Shown piece after piece: positions 2,909 through 12,788 of a stretch of DNA of 12,788 bases. Location of the stretch: the NCBI GenBank assembly GCA_020348925.1, contig CP070758.1, forward strand, positions 563,581 through 576,368. The letters are read 5' to 3'. How positions within the stretch are numbered: position 1 is the stretch's first letter; each line of letters opens with the position of its first letter. Both the position numbers and the translations under genes were made by a program. The notes below the pieces were generated by a model, which did not search any database, had not been told where the DNA came from, and saw nothing but the letters and a program-made list of their open reading frames with translations. The stretch comes from Gemmatimonadota bacterium. Lineage in GTDB: Bacteria; JBHIER01; G020348925.

Positions 2909-3109
2909 TTCATCTTCTTTTTCTTTGCTGGCCAAAGAAAAAGAAGCAAAAAGAAAGGCCAGCCCAAATCCTTCGCCGAGACTGCAAAGGCTCACTTTAC
3001 TGTTTTTTCCAAACTCATCCCCGCTATCGCGGGGATTCATACACGGAAAAAAAGACCGCTTCGTTCGCCTGTCGGTCTAACGGCTCAGGCTTAAGGGCAC
3101 TAAAGAGCC
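2909..3109. repeat. Intergenic mosaic repeat family, copy 1 (201 bp)
   Basis: Opens TTCATCTTCTTTTTCTTTGCTGGCCAAAGAAAAAGAAG, an A/T-rich hairpin at 2914-2946. Contains the hairpins CCCCGCTATCGCGGGG (3019-3034) and GCCTG-N14-CAGGC (3067-3090). Closes ...CTCAGGCTTAAGGGCACTAAAGAGCC. Near-identical blocks recur at 7790-8065 and 8900-9316. Confidence 0.65.
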
Positions 3110-3385
3110 AAGACAACATAATTCTCAGGAATTGATCCCGTTTTTGATAACTCAATACTGTAAAAATCCCCTTGACGAAGCGGTGTGCACGTTGTACTTT
3201 AAGCGGAACTGCTCGACGGAGTTTCGCCGTCGCGATTAATGAAATTGGAATAGGGGCGAGTGTCCTCACGAGCCGAGTAACTCTTTGACTTTTTAACTTT
3301 TTCACCTTCATCGGAGTCCGGGAAAGTGTAGTTGTTGAAATATCTGTGAAGATTGAGTAAGAAATGATAAACGAAAGGAGCGACC

Positions 3386-4516
3386 ATGGGCACGGATAAC
3401 ATCATTTTCTTGGAAGTCATCGAATGGTTTGACAAGACGGGACAGGAGCTGGTGCATCGGATTCCTGAAAAAGGCTCGGGCGAGATCAAATTCGGGGCAC
3501 AGTTGATCGTCCGGGACAACCAGGCGGCGGTCATGTTTTACAAGGGCAAAGCCCTGGACGCTTTCGGGCCCGGCCGACATACTTTGAAAACGGGTAATAT
3601 CCCCATCCTTACCAAGATCCTGGTCATCCCCTGGGGAATGACGAGCCCCCTTCGCGCCGAGGTCTACATGGTCAATATGAAGGTCTTTCCCAACCTCAAG
3701 TGGGGCACGCGGGAGCCGGTGGCCTTCAAGGATTCGGAGCTGGGGCTGGTCCGACTGCGGGCCCACGGTGTGTTCAACCTTCAGGTGGTCCAGCCGGTGC
3801 TCTTCATCAACAGCCTCGTGGGTACCATGGGTATATTCACGACAGAGGAGGTCGAAGAATATCTTAAGCGCGTCATTGTGTCACGGTTTAACGATCACCT
3901 GGGTGAAGAACTGGATAACCTTTTCGATCTGCCCGGCAGGTATGAAGAATTGTCCGAAGGCTTGCAAAAACGCTTGCAGGAAGATTTTGGCCGTTTCGGT
4001 CTGAGCCTCGAACATCTCTATATCACGTCAATAACACCACCGCCTGACGTCCAGAAGGCCATCGACGACAAGAGCCGCCTCAGTGTGATTCAAGATCTGG
4101 ACAAATTGGTCAAGATGAAAGCGGCCATGGCCATGGAAAAAGCCTCCGAATCAACGGGTGAAGCCGGCGCAGGATTCGGCATGGGGATGGGTTTTATGAT
4201 GCCGGCCATGTTTGCCAGCGCAATGAGACCCGAGACCGAAACAAAATCGGCCGCGGCGAAAGAGAAAGTTCAATGCCCGGACTGTAAGAATGCGATTCCC
4301 GAGGATGCGAAATTCTGTCCCCACTGCGGGCATCAGCAGGTCGTCTTCGGCCAGTGCACCAACTGCGGGAAAAACCTGCCACCGAACGCGAAGTTCTGCC
4401 CCAGGTGCGGGCGTCAGGTGGACGAGAAACCCACGCTCAAAATATGTCCCCAGTGTAAAACTGAGAACCTGCCCGGGGCCGCCTTTTGCAATCAGTGCGG
4501 GGAAAAGTTAGGGTAA
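3386..4516 (+). CDS. SPFH/band-7 (stomatin-prohibitin-flotillin-like, COG4260/YdjI-type) protein with three C-terminal tandem zinc ribbons
   Basis: 376 aa. N-terminal [22 protein letters not shown]...[21 protein letters not shown] is typical of YdjI-type SPFH proteins. The C-terminus carries three C-x2-C-x9-11-C-x2-C units: [38 protein letters not shown] and [26 protein letters not shown] Shine-Dalgarno 6 nt upstream of the ATG. Confidence 0.8.
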
Positions 4517-4517
4517 A

Positions 4518-5744
4518 ATGCATTTCACTGTCCAGCAGGAGTGTCCCCAGTGCGGCGGCCGCATTGAGCTTGAGGAGACCGACCACCTCATTCACTGCCC
4601 TTTTTGCCGTGTAAAGAATTTCCTCTTTGCCAAGGATTATCCGCGCTACATTCTCCCAGCGAAATCTCCAAAAAAAGAGATGATATATGCGCCGTATATG
4701 CGTTTCAAGGGTGTGGCCTTTTTCTGTTCCGGAACGTCCGTCCATCACCGGATCGTGGATGTGACCCTTCAGGGAACGAAATTGAAACAACTACCCCTAT
4801 CCCTGGGACTGAGGCCTCAAACACTGAAGATGGAATTTGTCTCTCCAAAGGTGACGGGCTCTTTTTTAAAGAACGCCATTGGTGTCAGCGATGTCTTCGC
4901 AAACGTGGGGAGCCGAAGATCCGTTTCCGGGGAAGAAAAACTGTTGCATCGAGCCTATGTCGGAGAGACACTGAGTTGTATCTATTCCCCTCTTTATGTC
5001 GAGAAGAATCAAGTCGTTGATGCTGTGACCAATAAACCCCTGACTGAACTTCCACATGGCGACGATGTTTTTGCTCAATTTACGGACACACATCCTGAGT
5101 GGCGGATTACGTTCATGTCCACTCTGTGTCCCAACTGCGGCTGGGATTTGGTGGGCGAACGGGACAGTGTGGTCTTGATCTGCAGGAACTGCAGTACAGT
5201 CTGGGAGGCGTCCGAAGGTAAGTTCATGGAGGTACAGTACAGCGTTGTTCCAGGCAAGAATGAGAGGACGGTGTATGTGCCCTTCTGGAGAATAACCGCC
5301 GAAGAGAACACCCTGCCGGTACATTCTTACGCTGATTTTATTCGAGTAACCGGGCAGCCAATGATGGTGCGGCAGGAGTGGGAGGCTCGGGAGATGTTCT
5401 TCTGCGTACCGGCCTTCAAGATCCGGCCCGGCGTTTTTCTGCGACTGGCGGTTCAGGCGACGTTTACTCAGCAGGATTTTGAAACTGATGGGGAGGGGCT
5501 TTCTGAAAACGTGTATCCGATCACGCTCCCACTAGCGGAAGCAGTTCAAGCCCTGAAAATTACTTTAGCGCGATCAACCGTGCATGAGAAAAAAGTCTTT
5601 CCGCTGCTTCCTCAGGTGAATTTTCGTGTCAAAGGTACAAATCTCGTTTTTCTCCCTTTCAGGGATAATGGAAATGAACTCATCCAGGAGCAGAAAGGAT
5701 TCAGTATTCTTAAAAATGCATTGAAGGCAGGGCGGAATTTGTGA
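4518..5744 (+). CDS. Zinc-ribbon protein with internal duplication (two ZnR + ~170-aa domain units); possible YdjG-like partner of the SPFH protein
   Basis: 408 aa. The ATG lies 1 nt after the upstream TAA, so the pair is translationally coupled. ZnR1 is CPQCGG...HCPFC (res 9-30). ZnR2 is CPNCGW...CRNCS (res ~206-227). Each is followed by a similar segment: YILPAKSPKKEMIYAPYMRF versus VQYSVVPGKNERTVYVPFWRI. No catalytic motif recognised. Confidence 0.65.
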   Translation: MHFTVQQECPQCGGRIELEETDHLIHCPFCRVKNFLFAKDYPRYILPAKSPKKEMIYAPYMRFKGVAFFCSGTSVHHRIVDVTLQGTKLKQLPLSLGLRPQTLKMEFVSPKVTGSFLKNAIGVSDVFANVGSRRSVSGEEKLLHRAYVGETLSCIYSPLYVEKNQVVDAVTNKPLTELPHGDDVFAQFTDTHPEWRITFMSTLCPNCGWDLVGERDSVVLICRNCSTVWEASEGKFMEVQYSVVPGKNERTVYVPFWRITAEENTLPVHSYADFIRVTGQPMMVRQEWEAREMFFCVPAFKIRPGVFLRLAVQATFTQQDFETDGEGLSENVYPITLPLAEAVQALKITLARSTVHEKKVFPLLPQVNFRVKGTNLVFLPFRDNGNELIQEQKGFSILKNALKAGRNL

Positions 5745-5785: not shown

Positions 5786-5825
5786 AGATTCTTCGACTCC
5801 GCTCCGCTTCGCTCAGAATGACAAA
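5786..5825 (+). repeat. ~40-bp REP-like element, copy A (GATTCTTCG-A-(CTYCG)3-CTCAGAATGACAAAG)
   Basis: The sequence is gattcttcgactccgctccgcttcgctcagaatgacaaag. It recurs at 10684-10722 in the same orientation and at 9528-9563 inverted. Pentamer order varies in the core. Confidence 0.6.
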
Positions 5826-6039
5826 GAGTTTTATGTCGACCCTCGCGACAATGTGAGGCAGGCACGGCTCAACGGCTGGCATGAAATCTAAAAAGAGAAA
5901 AATCCACCCTAACTCTCTTTTTCACAAGGAGGGGATAAAGACATCTTATGGAAGGTGGGATTGAGGGTATAGTAAAATCCTGTAAGATAAAATTTGTCGT
6001 ATAGGAAGTTTCTATGGAAGCTCTTTGGACAGAACGGAG

Positions 6040-6173: not shown

Positions 6174-7616
<1,443 letters not shown>

Positions 7617-7789: not shown

Positions 7790-8065
7790 TACTTCTTTTT
7801 CTTTGCTGGCCAAGAATAAATTTGCTCACAATGAAAAAGAAAGGGGTACCATATCCGTTTGTCATTTTTCATTTTCTTTGCTTGTCCAAAGAAAATGAAG
7901 TAAAAGAAATGACAGCCCAATAAACCTTCGCCGGGATCGTCGGCGGTTCGCTTCGCTGTTTTTCCGAAACTCGTCCTCCCTGCGGTCGGACTCAGACAGC
8001 CGGAAAAACATCCGCTTCGCTCACTGGTCGATCTAACAGCTCAGGTTTCAGGGCATTGATGAGCC
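7790..8065. repeat. Intergenic mosaic repeat family, copy 2 (~276 bp; two A/T hairpin modules plus a divergent 3' module)
   Basis: Opens ACTTCTTTTTCTTTGCTGGCCAAG. Carries a second hairpin CATTTTCTTTGCTTGTCCAAAGAAAATGAAG, then ...GACAGCCCAATAAACCTTCGCCGGG.... The 3' module is ...CCGCTTCGCTCACTGGTCGATCTAACAGCTCAGGTTTCAGGGCATTGATGAGCC. Confidence 0.6.
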
Positions 8066-8090
8066 AATGTGTTCCGACAGCATACCTTCT

Positions 8091-8105
8091 CATTCTTGTG
8101 AGAAC
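8091..8105 (+). promoter_or_regulatory. Shared 15-mer CATTCTTGTGAGAAC, copy 1, 26 nt upstream of the ATG at 8131
   Basis: Identical 15-mer at 9641-9655, upstream of the next cassette gene. Contains the inverted repeat TTCT-N4-AGAA. Candidate shared promoter or operator. Confidence 0.4.
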
Positions 8106-8130: not shown

Positions 8131-8844
8131 ATGGAAATGAATAGGAAAACTGCTGCTTCAATAAGGGCCGGGATTGGCCTGCAAAACGAGCGGTCTCTCC
8201 ACGCTGCCATCAAAGAATGGTACTCACGTCCAGACGATCGTTTCGAAGTTATGGTTGACAATTATGTCGTCGATATCGTGCGAGACGATGTGCTCATTGA
8301 AATTCAGACGAAGAATCTTTCGGCCATTCATCGAAAACTGAGAGCGTTGATTCAGAATCATCCTGTCCGTTTGGTTTATCCGATACCGGAGGAGAAGTGG
8401 ATCGTCCGGGTTTCAAAATCCGGCGAAAAGATATTGAGCAGTCGAAAATCTCCTAAGAGGGGAAAATTGTCTGAGATCTTTGAAGAAGTCGTGTATATCC
8501 CCGGTCTTTTAAAGGAAGATCATTTCACCCTTGAAGTCCTGATGATTCAGGAGGAAGAGGTACGATGTGATGATGGCAAAGGGAGCTGGTGGAGAAAGGG
8601 TGTGAGCATAGTCGACAGACGATTAATTGATGTTGTGGAACAAATCCGGTTCAGCGACACGAAAGATTTTGGACGGTTTTTACCGAGAACGTTAGCTGTG
8701 CCCTTTACGAATAAAATGCTTGCTGAGGAGAGGGGTGAATCGGTCTCTCTGGCCCAGAAGATGACGTATTGTCTCAAGAAAATGGGATTGTTGAAAGAGG
8801 TAGGGAAGAAGGGCAATGAGTTATTGTTTGAGATAGTAAGATGA
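8131..8844 (+). CDS. Hypothetical protein; putative PD-(D/E)XK-fold nuclease-like N-domain with a winged-helix-like C-terminus
   Basis: 237 aa. The pattern helix-E (ERSLHAAIKEWY), then beta-strand D (NYVVDIVRDD), then hhhExQxK (VLIEIQTKN) is characteristic of restriction-endonuclease-fold and Rpn/YhgA-like proteins. The C-terminal LAQKMTYCLKKMGLLKEVGKKGNELLFEI looks like a wHTH. The family is not identified and the assignment is inferential. Confidence 0.55.
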   Translation: MEMNRKTAASIRAGIGLQNERSLHAAIKEWYSRPDDRFEVMVDNYVVDIVRDDVLIEIQTKNLSAIHRKLRALIQNHPVRLVYPIPEEKWIVRVSKSGEKILSSRKSPKRGKLSEIFEEVVYIPGLLKEDHFTLEVLMIQEEEVRCDDGKGSWWRKGVSIVDRRLIDVVEQIRFSDTKDFGRFLPRTLAVPFTNKMLAEERGESVSLAQKMTYCLKKMGLLKEVGKKGNELLFEIVR

Positions 8845-8899: not shown

Positions 8900-9316
8900 T
8901 TCATCTTCTTTTTCTTTACTGGCCAAAGAAAAAGTGTATTCGCTTTGCTCAACACTTCCAAGGGGCTCTCGCCCCTATGGCGGATTTCAGTGTTCAACCA
9001 GCTCACATCGATATTCTGTTACCCCTCGGAGGAAAGCACATTCTTTCCTCCGAACCACCTGATGTACATCTTGAAAATTTACACAATTTCCAAGATGCAT
9101 AAGAATCAAAAAGAAAGACCAGCCCAAAGCCTTCGCCGAGACCGTCAACGGCTCACGGCACTGTTTTTTCAAAACTCATCCCGCTTTCGCGGGATTCAGA
9201 CACGGAAAAAACGAAAGCCTGTCCTGAGCAGTTCGACTTCGCTCACTATAAACTTTGTCGAAGGGCTCCGTTCGCCTGTCGGTCTAACGGCTCAGGCTTC
9301 AGGGCATTGAAGAGTC
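8900..9316. repeat. Intergenic mosaic repeat family, copy 3 (417 bp; copy-1 backbone with a ~170-bp insert and a duplicated hybrid 3' module)
   Basis: Opens TTCATCTTCTTTTTCTTTACTGGCCAAAGAAAAAG. A 170-bp insert spans 8937-9106. The sequence then resumes CAAAAAGAAAGACCAGCCCAAAGCCTTCGCCGAG...CCCGCTTTCGCGGG.... The 3' end holds both a copy-2-like unit (GACTTCGCTCACT...) and a copy-1-like unit (GTTCGCCTGTCGGTCTAACGGCTCAGGCTTCAGGGCATTGAAGAG). Confidence 0.6.
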
Positions 9317-9395
9317 GATGCATTATCATAGTACAATTTCTTATGGTTCTTGATTATGAAAGTTATACCATCATGTCTGACATTCCTTAAGTTGA

Positions 9396-9634
9396 TTTAT
9401 TTAATCTGATTAATTCATGAAGTACTATGCAGACGAATGCACAGCTCTTGCGAAACCGGTGCTGCATGCAGATTTATCCACTCCACAAGGCCATACTGGC
9501 CTTGTTCCGGTCGAAATGACAGAAGGTGTCATTCTGAGCGGAGCGAAGCGAAGCCGAAGAATCTGAATGGTAACTGCTTGCATATTACGTGTATGGCATA
9601 CAACGATATGTTTGTGATTAATTCAGATTAATAA
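9396..9634. mobile_element. MITE-like insert, ~240 bp, bounded by imperfect inverted repeats (TTAATCTGATTAATTCA ... TGATTAATTCAGATTAA) and carrying one inverted REP-like element
   Basis: The left IR lies at 9396-9412 and the right IR at about 9615-9634. The interior holds GTCATTCTGAGCGGAGCGAAGCGAAGCCGAAGAATC (9528-9563), which is the reverse complement of the 5786 and 10684 elements. No ORF of its own. Confidence 0.4.
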
Positions 9635-9693: not shown

Positions 9694-10326
9694 ATGTCCG
9701 CAAAACTATGTCCGAAAATTATTCTTGAGGGAACCCGGCTCACACTGAAAACGGACATTGCCTTTGCCCTGAACGAACATCCGCGTATTGTCGGTCCTCG
9801 GAAGTACAGATATCACTCGCCGTTGATCTCGGCGGAATGGTGTGCCTTCACCAACGTTCCCTGGGGACGGGGGCTCATCAATTTCGAGCCGCAGGAGGAG
9901 GATCGGGCCATGGAGACATACAAAACGTGGGCTCGATTGTTCGAGTTGTTGTGTTATTATTCCTGGATCATTGACCGTTTTCATATATCGACCCGGGCGT
10001 ACCAGTTGCAGACGTACGATACAGATTACGATTTCGGCTGGCTGGAGGAGCGACTGGCTGCCCTCGGTTTCCACCTCGTCTTCTGCACACGGACGCCGGA
10101 GTCCTTTGAAGCGGCCCGCGGGGAGAGAATAAAGATATCCGGGAAACCGGATCAGTACGATAATCTGGATGTCTTCATTCGTGAGCAGGAGCTCATGCGC
10201 CGTCTGATCGGTGAGTCCGTTTTACCCACGCTGGAGCTGGACATGTCCGATAGCAATGTGGGATCCGCAGTGGAGAGGATCGCCGACTGGCTGAGGGAGA
10301 CCGGCGGTGCATGGGCAAAAGAGTGA
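9694..10326 (+). CDS. Thymidylate-kinase-like (dNMP kinase fold) protein with a degenerate Walker A motif
   Basis: 210 aa. The N-terminal KIILEGTRLTLKT aligns with the Tmk P-loop h-h-h-EG-x-D-x-[AS]-GKST, but the glycine before the lysine is leucine (GTRLTLKT). The Tmk DR(Y/F/H)xxS..AYQ motif is retained as IDRFHISTRAYQLQ. Either a pseudokinase or a kinase of altered specificity. Confidence 0.55.
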   Translation: MSAKLCPKIILEGTRLTLKTDIAFALNEHPRIVGPRKYRYHSPLISAEWCAFTNVPWGRGLINFEPQEEDRAMETYKTWARLFELLCYYSWIIDRFHISTRAYQLQTYDTDYDFGWLEERLAALGFHLVFCTRTPESFEAARGERIKISGKPDQYDNLDVFIREQELMRRLIGESVLPTLELDMSDSNVGSAVERIADWLRETGGAWAKE

Positions 10327-10683
10327 TCGGAGCATTCAGTGTAACGAGAAAAATATCTTGAACACATTCGATACAGCCTAACCTTAAAAGTTTTGAGATT
10401 TTTACAGACACAACGTCTTTCCATTCGTTCCGAAATCCCCCCAATTTACTCTATTTTTAAATTCTCCAATTAAGTTGACGATATTCTTGATCCATCGACT
10501 CTCCACATGACAGCAAGTATCAATGAGAGTATGAAACTGTTGACTTGCAAAGCCGTCATTTTAATCCCCGGAACAAGCCAAGGGCGGGATTCGGGGAGAT
10601 ATGGCCTTCATCCCTACAGATTCCTCGATTCGGCGGAGCCTGTGCCAGGCTAAATACGTCACGTTAAGGTGTTCGCCATGCCA

Positions 10684-10722
10684 GATTCTTCGACTACGCT
10701 TCGCTTCGCTCAGAATGACAAA
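10684..10722 (+). repeat. ~40-bp REP-like element, copy C
   Basis: The sequence is gattcttcgactacgcttcgcttcgctcagaatgacaaa. Same ends as copy A. The core pentamers are CTACG, CTTCG, CTTCG. Confidence 0.6.
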
Positions 10723-10973: not shown

Positions 10974-12788
10974 ATGAAGAGATTGTTTTTGTCTGTAGTG
11001 GTATTCGCTGTGGCATTGAACGTATGCTATGGAGACTCCGTAGATTCCCTTTCGATGAAGGACATCGAGGTTCAGGCTATTCGTTTGTCCGAGGAAGTCA
11101 TTGTCGATGGGGTTCTGTCGGAATCCGTGTGGCACAATGGATACTGTATTACTGAATTTACGCAACGGGAGCCCGATGAGTGGGCTGAAGCCACGGAGAA
11201 GACGGAAGTGCGAATTGCTTATGACGACGACGCTCTGTATGTGGGGGCCAGAATGTACGATTCCGCGCCGGACTCCATTATTGCCCGGCTTGGCCGCCGT
11301 GACCAATGGCCCAGCGCCGACTTTTTTCGGTTCTATATCGATCCCTACTACGATCGGCGCAGCGGTTTTTATTTCGGATTGAATGCCGCCGGAACCTGCG
11401 ACGACGGGATTTTGTACAACGACGAGTGGAGCGACGATTCGTGGGACGGTGTGTGGGAGGGGAAAGTCAATATTGACGAATTGGGCTGGACGGCGGAGAT
11501 GCGGATACCCTATTCACAGCTCCGTTTCCAGAAGAAGGACACCTATGTCTGGGGGATCAACTTCAGGCGATGCATTGAAAGGAAACATGAACATGCTTAC
11601 GTCGTCTTTGTGCCGACGGACGGCAGCGGATTCGTCTCCCGCTTTGTCGATTTGGTCGGCATCGATAATATTAATCCGGCCCGTCAAATGGAGATATTAC
11701 CTTACAGCCGGCTGAAGGCCGAGTATGTCCCAGCTGATCCGGACGATCCTTTCAATGACGGCTCGAGATATCCACCTGATGTCGGGGCCGATTTTAAGAT
11801 AGGTCTTGGGAACAATCTGACCTTGGATGCCACAATCAATCCCGATTTCGGGCAGGTTGAGGTCGATCCGGCGGTCATCAATCTGGGTGATGTGGAGACC
11901 TTTTACAGCGAGAAGCGACCTTTCTTCATCGAAGGCTCTTCGATCTTCGAATTCGGATACGGTGGCTCCCGCAACTTTTGGAGTTTCAACTGGAGCGGTC
12001 CGGAGTTCTTCTACAGCAGACGCATTGGCCGGCGTCCTCAGGGAAGTCTTCCCGATCATGATTGGGTTCAGGTTCCGGAAGGAACCCAGATCCTCGGGGC
12101 AACCAAATTGAGCGGAAAGATCGGAAATAACTGGAACGTGGGGACGCTCCTCGCTCTCACAGCCCGTGAGAATGCGAAACTCGATACATCCGGCCATACA
12201 TTTCGGACGGAAGTGGAGCCGCTCACCTATTACGGAGTGGCTCGTGCCCAGAAAGAGATGAACGAGGGGAAGCAGGGGTTGGGCTTCATCTCCACGCTCT
12301 CCAAACGTATGTTTGAGGATGCTCGGCTGAAGGACGATTTCAACGGAGCTGCCGGGACTTTTGGCATCGACGGCTGGACGTTTCTGGACGCCGAGAAGAT
12401 GTGGGTTATCACCGGTTGGGCCGGTATGACGCACGTAAGTGGGAGTATGCAGCGGATGCTGTCCCTTCAGGAAAGCTCCCGGCATTATTTCCAGAGACCG
12501 GACGCTTCCCACGTGAACCTGGACAGCTCGGCGACGTCGATGACCGGCTATGCCGGCCGTATTCTCGTCAATAAGCAAAAGGGGAACATCATTTTTAACA
12601 GTGCTCTCGGGGTGATCGATCCCAAATTTGACTTGAACGACATGGGCTTCATGTGGCGCACGGATGTGATCAACGGTCATCTCGGCGGCGGCTACAAGTG
12701 GACCAAGCCCGGAAAATATACCCGGTACGTTTCGCTGATCGGCGCCGTGTTCCAAAACTACGACTACGGTTGGAACAATACCTGGCGG
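10974..12788 (+). CDS. Secreted DUF5916 / carbohydrate-binding-family-9-like domain protein (3'-partial; continues beyond the window)
   Basis: GGGGGAG Shine-Dalgarno 6 nt upstream of the ATG. Signal peptide MKRLFLSVVVFAVALNVCYG. The frame was translated by hand over 604 codons without a stop. The family-typical stretch is ATINPDFGQVEVDPAVINLGDVETFYSEKRPFFIEGSSIF. The 352-aa ORF 11697-12755 on the opposite strand is judged to be an antisense artefact. Confidence 0.85.
   Translation, partial: MKRLFLSVVVFAVALNVCYGDSVDSLSMKDIEVQAIRLSEEVIVDGVLSESVWHNGYCITEFTQREPDEWAEATEKTEVRIAYDDDALYVGARMYDSAPDSIIARLGRRDQWPSADFFRFYIDPYYDRRSGFYFGLNAAGTCDDGILYNDEWSDDSWDGVWEGKVNIDELGWTAEMRIPYSQLRFQKKDTYVWGINFRRCIERKHEHAYVVFVPTDGSGFVSRFVDLVGIDNINPARQMEILPYSRLKAEYVPADPDDPFNDGSRYPPDVGADFKIGLGNNLTLDATINPDFGQVEVDPAVINLGDVETFYSEKRPFFIEGSSIFEFGYGGSRNFWSFNWSGPEFFYSRRIGRRPQGSLPDHDWVQVPEGTQILGATKLSGKIGNNWNVGTLLALTARENAKLDTSGHTFRTEVEPLTYYGVARAQKEMNEGKQGLGFISTLSKRMFEDARLKDDFNGAAGTFGIDGWTFLDAEKMWVITGWAGMTHVSGSMQRMLSLQESSRHYFQRPDASHVNLDSSATSMTGYAGRILVNKQKGNIIFNSALGVIDPKFDLNDMGFMWRTDVINGHLGGGYKWTKPGKYTRYVSLIGAVFQNYDYGWNNTWR

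Follow-up and report, generated by a model that had tools for sequence, protein, structure and literature searches.

As a rule, bacterial SPFH proteins work by way of a partner dedicated to them and encoded in the same operon, for example NfeD, FtsH or YdjG/H. Study of the soluble YdjI/SamI branch is only now beginning and, to our knowledge, is confined to Bacillus, in which the branch is tied to PspA. The combination of an SPFH gene with a dedicated operon partner is a recurrent logic of prokaryotic SPFH systems, and a survey of 2009 predicted just two small SPFH subfamilies to be soluble (PMC2636767). Bacillus YdjI is soluble, depends on YdjG/YdjH for its membrane localization and is required for PspA foci (PMC8581546). 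The protein, also named SamI, has a C-terminal zinc finger past a low-complexity linker (bioRxiv 10.64898/2026.02.06.704340; PMC11237479) and is a brake that restrains the signalling of its partners SamGH (bioRxiv 10.64898/2026.02.06.704340), while YdjG has an NTF2-like (YpeB-related) domain after its ribbons (PMC11237479).

In the stretch of 12,788 nucleotides analysed here (the window), the list of open reading frames places a gene pair on the forward strand, with gene 1 at 3386-4516 (376 aa) and gene 2 at 4518-5744 (408 aa). On balance, the pair probably forms a self-contained two-gene operon, in which a soluble YdjI/SamI-type SPFH scaffold is encoded together with a dedicated, previously undescribed partner. 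The stop codon of gene 1, TAA (4514-4516), is followed by a single A at 4517 and then by the ATG of gene 2 from 4518, and the letters of the junction confirm the start of gene 2 1 nt past the gene 1 stop that had been noted from the sequence. This stop-start junction, TAA-A-ATG (4514-4520, + strand), fits translational coupling. The gap between the SPFH gene and the partner gene was 0 nt in 22 of 61 related loci and 1 nt in another 22, with junctions such as TAGATG, TAAATG and TGACATG, and the two genes are consistent with a translationally coupled unit.

The assignment of gene 1 (+ strand) to the soluble YdjI/SamI-type SPFH proteins is based on its reading frame, Pfam and BLASTP. Residues 24-233 (3455-4084) matched the Pfam profile Band_7_1 (PF13421) over positions 2-210 of 211, with an E value of 6.7e-62 and a score of 209 bits (cut-off 24). 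The alignment places a Gly/Met-rich hydrophobic linker at residues ~258-280 (4157-4225), the pattern of which, G-x-G-[LMIF]-G-M-G-[ML]-G-[FLI]-MMPAMF, is closely kept in the 10 partner-linked homologues displayed out of a 57-sequence alignment. Three tandem zinc ribbons, at residues 297-314, 324-341 and 354-371 (4274-4498), each read C-x2-C-x10-C-x2-C in a regular-expression search; Pfam matches to Zn_Ribbon_1, DZR and Zn_ribbon_3 cover residues ~291-376, and the triple ribbon is kept in 63 of the 64 full-length orthologues from related loci. In a BLASTP comparison, gene 1 shared 25% identity with Bacillus YdjI over 318 residues (E 3e-30), the alignment extending across the linker into the first ribbon; judged by these sequence comparisons, it is a full-length homologue of YdjI/SamI. 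The sequence-only reading of gene 1, a COG4260/YdjI-type SPFH domain followed by three tandem ribbons, therefore stands on Pfam, BLASTP and the ribbon search. A sequence search of gene 1 against the PDB gave no match, and looking up its exact product returned no record. The hydropathy peak in a 19-residue window falls at residues 134-152, inside the SPFH domain and not at the N terminus; no N-terminal transmembrane segment was apparent by hydropathy, the SPFH domain beginning at residue 24, and the protein is predicted to be soluble, without an N-terminal transmembrane anchor.

Like YdjI/SamI of the pspA-ydjGHI (samGHI) operon, gene 1 combines a Band_7_1 domain lacking an N-terminal transmembrane segment with a Met/Gly-rich linker and a C-terminal C4 ribbon, and is encoded beside a protein with two zinc ribbons. 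It differs in having three ribbons where YdjI has one, in heading a two-gene unit whereas YdjI is the last of four, and in having no pspA, ydjG or ydjH alongside. The sequence-only reading had taken the SPFH-ribbon fusion for a reordering of Ydj parts; however, because YdjI itself already ends in a zinc finger, such a fusion is the normal layout of the family and only the triplication differs. Its statement that the window contains no pspA was corroborated by Pfam. In addition, phmmer searches with single Bacillus seeds found no PspA, YdjG or YdjH homologues in the window or in ~90 related loci (about +/-6-10 kb), no Pfam matches to PspA_IM30 or TPM were present in nine annotated contexts, and no YdjH/TPM partner was found beside the pair.

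The pair itself is strongly conserved. Each of the 61 metagenome loci with room for it has an SPFH-ribbon gene directly upstream of the partner gene and in the same orientation, 44 of them with a gap of 0-1 nt, and the pair was also intact in nine of nine other contexts looked up, namely a 2.5-Mb Deltaproteobacteria MAG chromosome, Desulfurivibrio alkaliphilus (CP001940), a Nitrospirota MAG and six further contigs. The complete genomes with the pair include CP001940 and CP070704. When neighbouring ORFs were clustered without bias, the SPFH gene was the sole universal neighbour of the partner gene. This adjacency is far beyond chance, and in a family found in both Desulfobacterota and Nitrospirota (sulfate-reducer-type bacteria) the two genes are invariably neighbours. 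That the genes form a conserved pair was one half of what the sequence-only reading had staked itself on, and these counts uphold it; the other half, a kinship of gene 2 with YdjG, is taken up below. The flanks of the pair differ among genomes and are mostly housekeeping genes rather than islands, for example yidC/trmE/mreB, dnaB/ribosomal proteins, rpoD/dnaG, smc/ftsY and tatC/purA/dnaJ. Two candidates for a third gene of the module were rejected, each looking like local synteny: a PilZ gene, upstream in 10 loci only, and a GAF-domain-like protein (by eye; Response_reg in locus L004), near 18 loci. Two apparent Rosetta-stone fusions, "long" SPFH ORFs of 552 and 416 aa, proved to be longest-ORF artefacts with spurious N-terminal extensions.

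Gene 2 (4518-5744, + strand) encodes two tandem modules, each made up of a zinc ribbon and an alpha/beta domain. The ribbons, at residues 9-30 (4542-4607) and 204-225 (5127-5192), both read C-x2-C-x14-C-x2-C by regular expression, and their eight Cys are invariant across 99 homologues with 30-47% identity to the window protein. A profile comparison of the N half with the C half gave 95.9% probability (E 5e-9, 175 columns), which justifies regarding gene 2 as an internal duplication of the ribbon plus alpha/beta module and bears out its earlier description as "duplicated" with two more ribbons. The structure model is of high confidence along the whole chain, with no segment of pLDDT <50. Pfam detected no domain in gene 2 other than the ribbons, its profile gave weak, ribbon-only matches against PDB sequences, no solved structural relative or PDB fold match was found, and no catalytic or ligand motif was recognisable. 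Gene 2 belongs to a large, uncharacterised and previously undescribed family of constant length, with 1070 representatives (roughly a thousand 50%-identity clusters), 484 of them at E<=1e-30.

Neither protein of the pair has a predicted transmembrane segment; the hydropathy peak of gene 2, at residues 294-312, holds Lys, Arg and Pro and is modelled as a strand-helix region. The extreme C-terminus of gene 2 (residues 397-408, ILKNALKAGRNL; 5706-5741, + strand) forms a cationic amphipathic helix by hydrophobic moment, model and conservation. Specifically, the hydrophobic moment is 0.75 in the window protein, with a median of 0.56 over 99 homologues, and across the family this stretch belongs to the top ~3% among the 12-residue windows of each protein and has a median net charge of +2; the model has a helix at residues 399-405; and close homologues invariably have K399 and G405 and almost always L402, R406 and L408. 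From its composition, the helix is a candidate membrane-targeting element. However, given its confident placement in the model, the helix could simply pack on its own domain.

How far gene 2 resembles YdjG/SamG bears on a second reading, that the pair is a true Ydj/Sam-type Psp module. Gene 2 would then correspond to YdjG in diverged form, and a PspA/IM30 protein encoded elsewhere in the genome would be brought to the stressed membrane by the pair. Like YdjG/SamG, gene 2 is the operon partner of a YdjI-type SPFH protein and has two C4 ribbons of a similar, possibly TFIIB-like kind, which align at 90-94% probability; in gene 2 the ribbons are 195 residues apart, and PF08271 scored 14.4 bits, far under its cut-off of 29. 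Each protein has a putative membrane-contacting element at its extreme C-terminus, a transmembrane segment in YdjG and the amphipathic helix in gene 2. The genuine homology of gene 1 to YdjI and the need of Bacillus PspA foci for YdjI (PMC8581546) also favour such a module, as does a first, less diverse profile that aligned gene 2 residues 332-382 to YdjG 96-141. Unlike YdjG/SamG, however, gene 2 has no NTF2-like domain, and its C-terminus is an amphipathic cationic helix rather than a transmembrane segment. When a diverse gene 2 profile was compared with the YdjG-family profile by hhalign, 30 ribbon columns aligned and nothing more, the part of gene 2 that aligns being ribbon 2 only; with the ribbons removed, the probabilities were 6% and 3%. 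An early alignment of 138 columns vanished with a more diverse profile and was dropped as evidence, and BLASTP and three rounds of hhalign were robust for the ribbon alone, so that gene 2 as a YdjG homologue was rejected. The description of gene 2 as a YdjG-like zinc-ribbon protein is thus not supported, no homology being detectable beyond the ribbon, and we regard a Psp module of this type as rather unlikely.

The ribbons also raise the idea that gene 2 is a regulatory or nucleic-acid-binding ribbon protein, held at the membrane by the SPFH assembly and freed on envelope stress, with a brake or anti-regulator logic akin to SamI-SamGH (bioRxiv 10.64898/2026.02.06.704340) or PspA-PspF. TFIIB, RpoP and ribosomal proteins contain such ribbons, and automatic JGI names as well as weak matches in the PDB and Pfam point to these proteins. 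However, those matches are ribbon-only and under the family cut-offs, gene 2 has no HTH or other DNA-binding domain, and no regulated target gene is conserved beside the pair, which makes such a regulator improbable.

Under the preferred reading of a scaffold with its own partner, the gene 1 and gene 2 proteins would form a complex, the ribbons providing protein-protein contacts. The SPFH protein would oligomerize under the membrane, by analogy with other SPFH systems, and gene 2 would fill the role of YdjG/YdjH, tethering the SPFH assembly, being regulated by it, or both. Tethering would be peripheral, needing no transmembrane segment, and would operate through the cationic amphipathic C-terminal helix of gene 2, to which the Gly/Met-rich hydrophobic linker of gene 1 perhaps adds, as the composition of these elements suggests. 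Most likely, the pair would serve these anaerobes in constitutive membrane/envelope homeostasis, without dependence on a PspA encoded in the operon.

Upstream of the pair, outside the module, lies a structured repeat of ~215 nt (2909-3122, + strand), with further copies in the window at 7862-8093 and 9075-9344; its predicted RNA fold has an energy of -66.3 kcal/mol (z -3.9), and it matched no Rfam family. The sequence-only reading had placed the pair behind a cassette-type repeat. The repeat does exist upstream, but in the closest relative (locus L094) KptA and the SPFH gene are 55 nt apart and the repeat is absent, and it is an insertion in an otherwise conserved KptA-SPFH intergenic region, probably not a cassette boundary. 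That this repeat bounds an integron-type gene cassette with the pair as its cargo, an idea prompted by the structured repeats between several same-strand genes of the window, is most improbable: the window has no integrase, reading the repeat by eye showed no complementary RYYYAAC...GTTRRRY core pair, the closest relative lacks the repeat between KptA and the SPFH gene, a different repeat follows the pair on its downstream side, and elsewhere the pair occupies unrelated chromosomal contexts. Between the repeat and gene 1, a putative promoter of the pair (3172-3200, + strand) consists of TTGACG (3172-3177), a 17-nt spacer and TACTTT (3195-3200). The closest relative keeps the 46-nt block around it (3160-3205): by eye, ~44/46 positions agree with L094 ~673-718, whereas the intergenic sequence on either side is not shared. 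With a -10 hexamer that matches only 3/6, the candidate escaped the consensus scan; the promoter and terminator scan found nothing above shuffled expectation.

The position of the pair among repeats, adjoining an IS3-family element, might suggest an anti-phage sensor/effector or abortive-infection pair reacting to membrane damage, and the sequence-only reading had mentioned a sensor/effector of membrane damage during phage infection. This gained no support. Specifically, PADLOC-DB gave no defence-protein match, with one sub-threshold ribbon match (E 0.0016); PHROG matches were ribbon-only, save one weak match to the SPFH domain (phrog_200, E 2.2e-5); tblastn against 72,556 plasmids and 50,697 phage records found nothing; and there was no structural match in BFVD. 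In other genomes the flanks are mixed and mostly housekeeping, with no recurrent defence neighbour, and the repeat beside the pair is a later insertion. Neither defence genes nor PspA/IM30, which had been put forward as possible recurrent neighbours, were found as such in the neighbourhood survey. An anti-phage role is therefore disfavoured, and we give it very little probability.

Like stomatin-NfeD, flotillin-YuaF/NfeD2 and HflK/HflC-FtsH, the locus encodes an SPFH scaffold with a conserved, dedicated operon partner. It differs from SPFH-NfeD operons in that gene 2 is not NfeD-like, no NfeD Pfam match being found for gene 2 or any ORF of the window, and in that both proteins of the pair are without transmembrane segments. 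A stronger form of the preferred reading can be offered tentatively: the partner would be a new family with a fold unseen in solved structures and an obligate co-subunit of a PspA-independent SPFH system lacking transmembrane segments, tethering SPFH oligomers peripherally by its C-terminal helix, and the pair would be a distinct SPFH class core to Desulfobacterota and Nitrospirota.

In other phyla, then, the same SPFH branch is found with a different, equally conserved partner, with no PspA or transmembrane anchors nearby. The locus separates the traits intrinsic to the SPFH protein, the linker and ribbon, from those specific to Bacillus. In addition, the pair gives a defined, testable context to the large uncharacterised family of gene 2, and one host of the pair, Desulfurivibrio alkaliphilus, is in culture and has a complete genome.

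Both genes of the pair lie on the + strand where the sequence-only reading had placed them: gene 1, an ORF of 376 aa (3386-4516) encoding the SPFH-ribbon protein, and gene 2, an ORF of 408 aa (4518-5744) encoding its partner. Gene 1 matched Pfam Band_7_1 (PF13421, residues 24-233, E 6.7e-62), and several Pfam zinc-ribbon models matched residues ~291-376, where a motif scan located the three expected tandem ribbons (297-314, 324-341 and 354-371), each C-x2-C-x10-C-x2-C. Using a published ydjG primer sequence (PMC8581546), we retrieved a Bacillus pspA-ydjGHI locus and found that gene 1 aligns with YdjI at 25% identity over 318 residues (E 3e-30), across the Met/Gly-rich linker and into the first ribbon; this alignment, together with the Band_7_1 match, upholds its assignment as a YdjI-type SPFH protein. 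In the literature, YdjI (SamI) is a soluble member of the SPFH family that has a low-complexity region and carries a zinc finger at its C terminus (bioRxiv 10.64898/2026.02.06.704340; PMC11237479), and it likewise scored for Band_7_1 and a C-terminal ribbon. Since Bacillus YdjI itself carries this ribbon, SPFH plus ribbon is the normal layout of the family, and the supposed new fusion of Ydj ingredients has to be given up. The single variation is the triple ribbon, present in gene 1 and kept in 63 of the 64 full-length orthologues at related loci, whereas YdjI has one ribbon. A Gly/Met-rich hydrophobic segment of 16 residues was closely conserved among the displayed orthologues, and sequence searches detected no solved structure. 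Gene 1 adds a member to a known family: its product is a soluble SPFH protein of the YdjI type, in which both the hydrophobic linker and the triple ribbon are conserved.

The two ribbons ascribed to gene 2 were found by motif scan at residues 9-30 and 204-225, each C-x2-C-x14-C-x2-C, and no Pfam or NCBIfam model matched the protein at cut-off. A word-indexed search returned 617 relatives, the best 120 of which were 405-414 aa long and 50-77% identical (one 100%), with the named few among those listed coming from Desulfobacterota-type MAGs. An exhaustive profile search at E<=1e-3 gave 1070 representatives of clusters formed at 50% identity (484 at E<=1e-30); most were full-length, with about 395-430 aa. 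Across 99 aligned members that share 30-47% identity with the window protein, all eight ribbon cysteines and P59, P158, P255 and F256 were invariant, and a Pfam scan of all 99 yielded ribbon families only, all sub-threshold. The N and C halves aligned with each other over 175 columns (hhalign, 95.9%, E 5e-9), with a weak but colinear signal (33%) after removal of the ribbons, so that the term "duplicated" was apt: by profile comparison the halves are homologous through internal duplication, making gene 2 a duplicated ribbon-plus-domain partner.

Its proposed likeness to YdjG fared less well. In YdjG, two ribbons near the N terminus are accompanied by an NTF2-like domain and, at the C-terminal end, a TM segment (PMC11237479; PMC9239133; also Pfam), and in BLASTP the ribbons alone aligned with gene 2. 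A first profile comparison covered 138 columns at 76% probability, a more diverse gene 2 profile left 30 ribbon columns (90%), and without ribbons the probabilities were 6% and 3%, all against a YdjG profile that is shallow (members >=66% identical) and limits these comparisons. We therefore regard gene 2 as a two-ribbon partner of another kind and, given that shallow profile, not as a demonstrable YdjG homologue. No free hydrophobic helix was found in gene 2; where YdjG has its TM segment, gene 2 has a putative C-terminal amphipathic helix.

A single A separates the TAA of gene 1 (4514-4516) from the ATG of gene 2 (4518), as had been noted, a junction consistent with a co-transcribed, translationally coupled dyad. 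A 371-385-aa Band_7_1-ribbon gene lay directly upstream of the gene 2 homologue, on the same strand, in 9/9 look-up contexts (a 2.5-Mb Deltaproteobacteria MAG chromosome, Desulfurivibrio alkaliphilus CP001940, a Nitrospirota MAG and six other contigs). Among 80 metagenome loci, the SPFH gene was upstream in all 61 with >=1150 nt of upstream room, with a gap of 0-1 nt in 44/61; gaps that were larger, or negative, reflect start artefacts of the longest-ORF calls. The pair is thus always kept together, in chromosomal contexts. The Nitrospirota MAG contig JBHPDZ010000002.1 has two copies of the pair, arranged as mirror images and flanked by the same sets of genes, which suggests a palindromic assembly artefact and not a true duplication. 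When neighbouring ORFs were clustered without bias, no further neighbour proved universal; 18 loci had a GAF-domain-like protein (identified by eye) near the pair and 10 had a PilZ protein, and the varied flanks were mostly housekeeping (yidC/trmE/mreB, dnaB/ribosomal proteins, rpoD/dnaG, smc/ftsY, tatC/purA/dnaJ). The survey for recurrent PspA or defence neighbours found no PspA, YdjH/TPM or YdjG homologue in any neighbourhood examined; a Ydj-like system linked to Psp, whose PspA would be encoded at another place in the genome, is an unlikely reading of the pair. Nor did the suggested sensor or effector of phage infection find support: PADLOC gave no defence match, its one hit being a sub-threshold match to a ribbon, PHROG matches were ribbon-only apart from one weak SPFH-domain match, and plasmid and phage collections held no copies, which leaves a defence system very improbable.

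In the window, the pair is flanked by genes for the RNA 2'-phosphotransferase KptA/Tpt1 (2141-2746, + strand; NCBIfam NF002014, 241 bits vs cut-off 239) and a PLP-dependent decarboxylase (6174-7616), with an IS3-family element upstream (transposase in two ORFs, 333-1720, - strand; orfA HTH_Tnp_1 1373-1720, orfB rve integrase core 333-1358). KptA is syntenic with the pair only in the closest relative, L094 (partner 77% and KptA 80% identical). An intergenic structured repeat of ~215 nt (2909-3122, 7862-8093 and 9075-9344; partial copy 8900-8980), the supposed cassette-type repeat, comprises a perfect 14-bp hairpin and then a ~150-nt imperfect hairpin (RNA MFE -66.3 kcal/mol, z -3.9); it belongs to no Rfam family and shows no evident attC cores. 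Because the KptA stop and SPFH start of L094 are 55 nt apart and the repeat is absent from that spacer, the repeat-bearing block is an insertion and not a cassette boundary, and the repeat behaves like a MITE-type insertion; that the pair is integron-cassette cargo is accordingly scarcely credible. A 46-nt block (3160-3205) containing TTGACG-N17-TACTTT, about 44/46 identical by eye to L094 ~673-718, is a plausible promoter of the SPFH operon on sequence grounds, followed by about 165 nt of extra sequence before the ribosome-binding site in the window and by about 20 nt in L094. Another repeat, ~40-56 nt long and unrelated to the first (AGATTCTTCGACTxCGCTxCGCTTCGCTCAGAATGACA), occupies three intergenic regions in both orientations (5786-5841, 9509-9565 inverted, 10682-10722). 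Farther downstream, repeats part the + strand ORFs 8131-8844 (237 aa) and 9694-10326 (210 aa) from their neighbours, and neither has a Pfam, NCBIfam or PADLOC match. An ORF of >600 aa (~10974-12788, + strand) runs off the window end, with an N-terminal hydrophobic segment, DUF5916 (E 2.7e-41) and a sub-threshold CBM9-like match (E 4e-4, 20.8 bits vs cut-off 23.4); the 352-aa minus-strand ORF 11697-12755 is probably its antisense shadow.

SPFH proteins are oligomeric scaffolds near the membrane that work with operon partners (PMC2636767, PMC8581546), and by analogy the two products would form a complex beneath the membrane. The last 12 residues of gene 2 have a hydrophobic moment of 0.75 here (median 0.56, top ~3% of windows) and a net charge of +2, suggesting that they form an amphipathic helix that is cationic and conserved; for comparison, the amphipathic helix at the C terminus of E. 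coli FtsA gives 0.57 by the same calculation. Because it is placed where YdjG has a TM segment, this helix is a candidate for peripheral membrane tethering. We slightly favour a PspA-independent two-protein SPFH scaffold; a sequestered-regulator model seems improbable.

As far as these searches show, the gene 2 family and the obligate dyad are undescribed, and full-text literature searches found no published description of the pair. The type of system, an SPFH protein with a dedicated partner, is itself already known; the pair overturns nothing established, and its function is putative. It would interest specialists in SPFH proteins and envelope stress, and the orphan gene 2 family gains a context.
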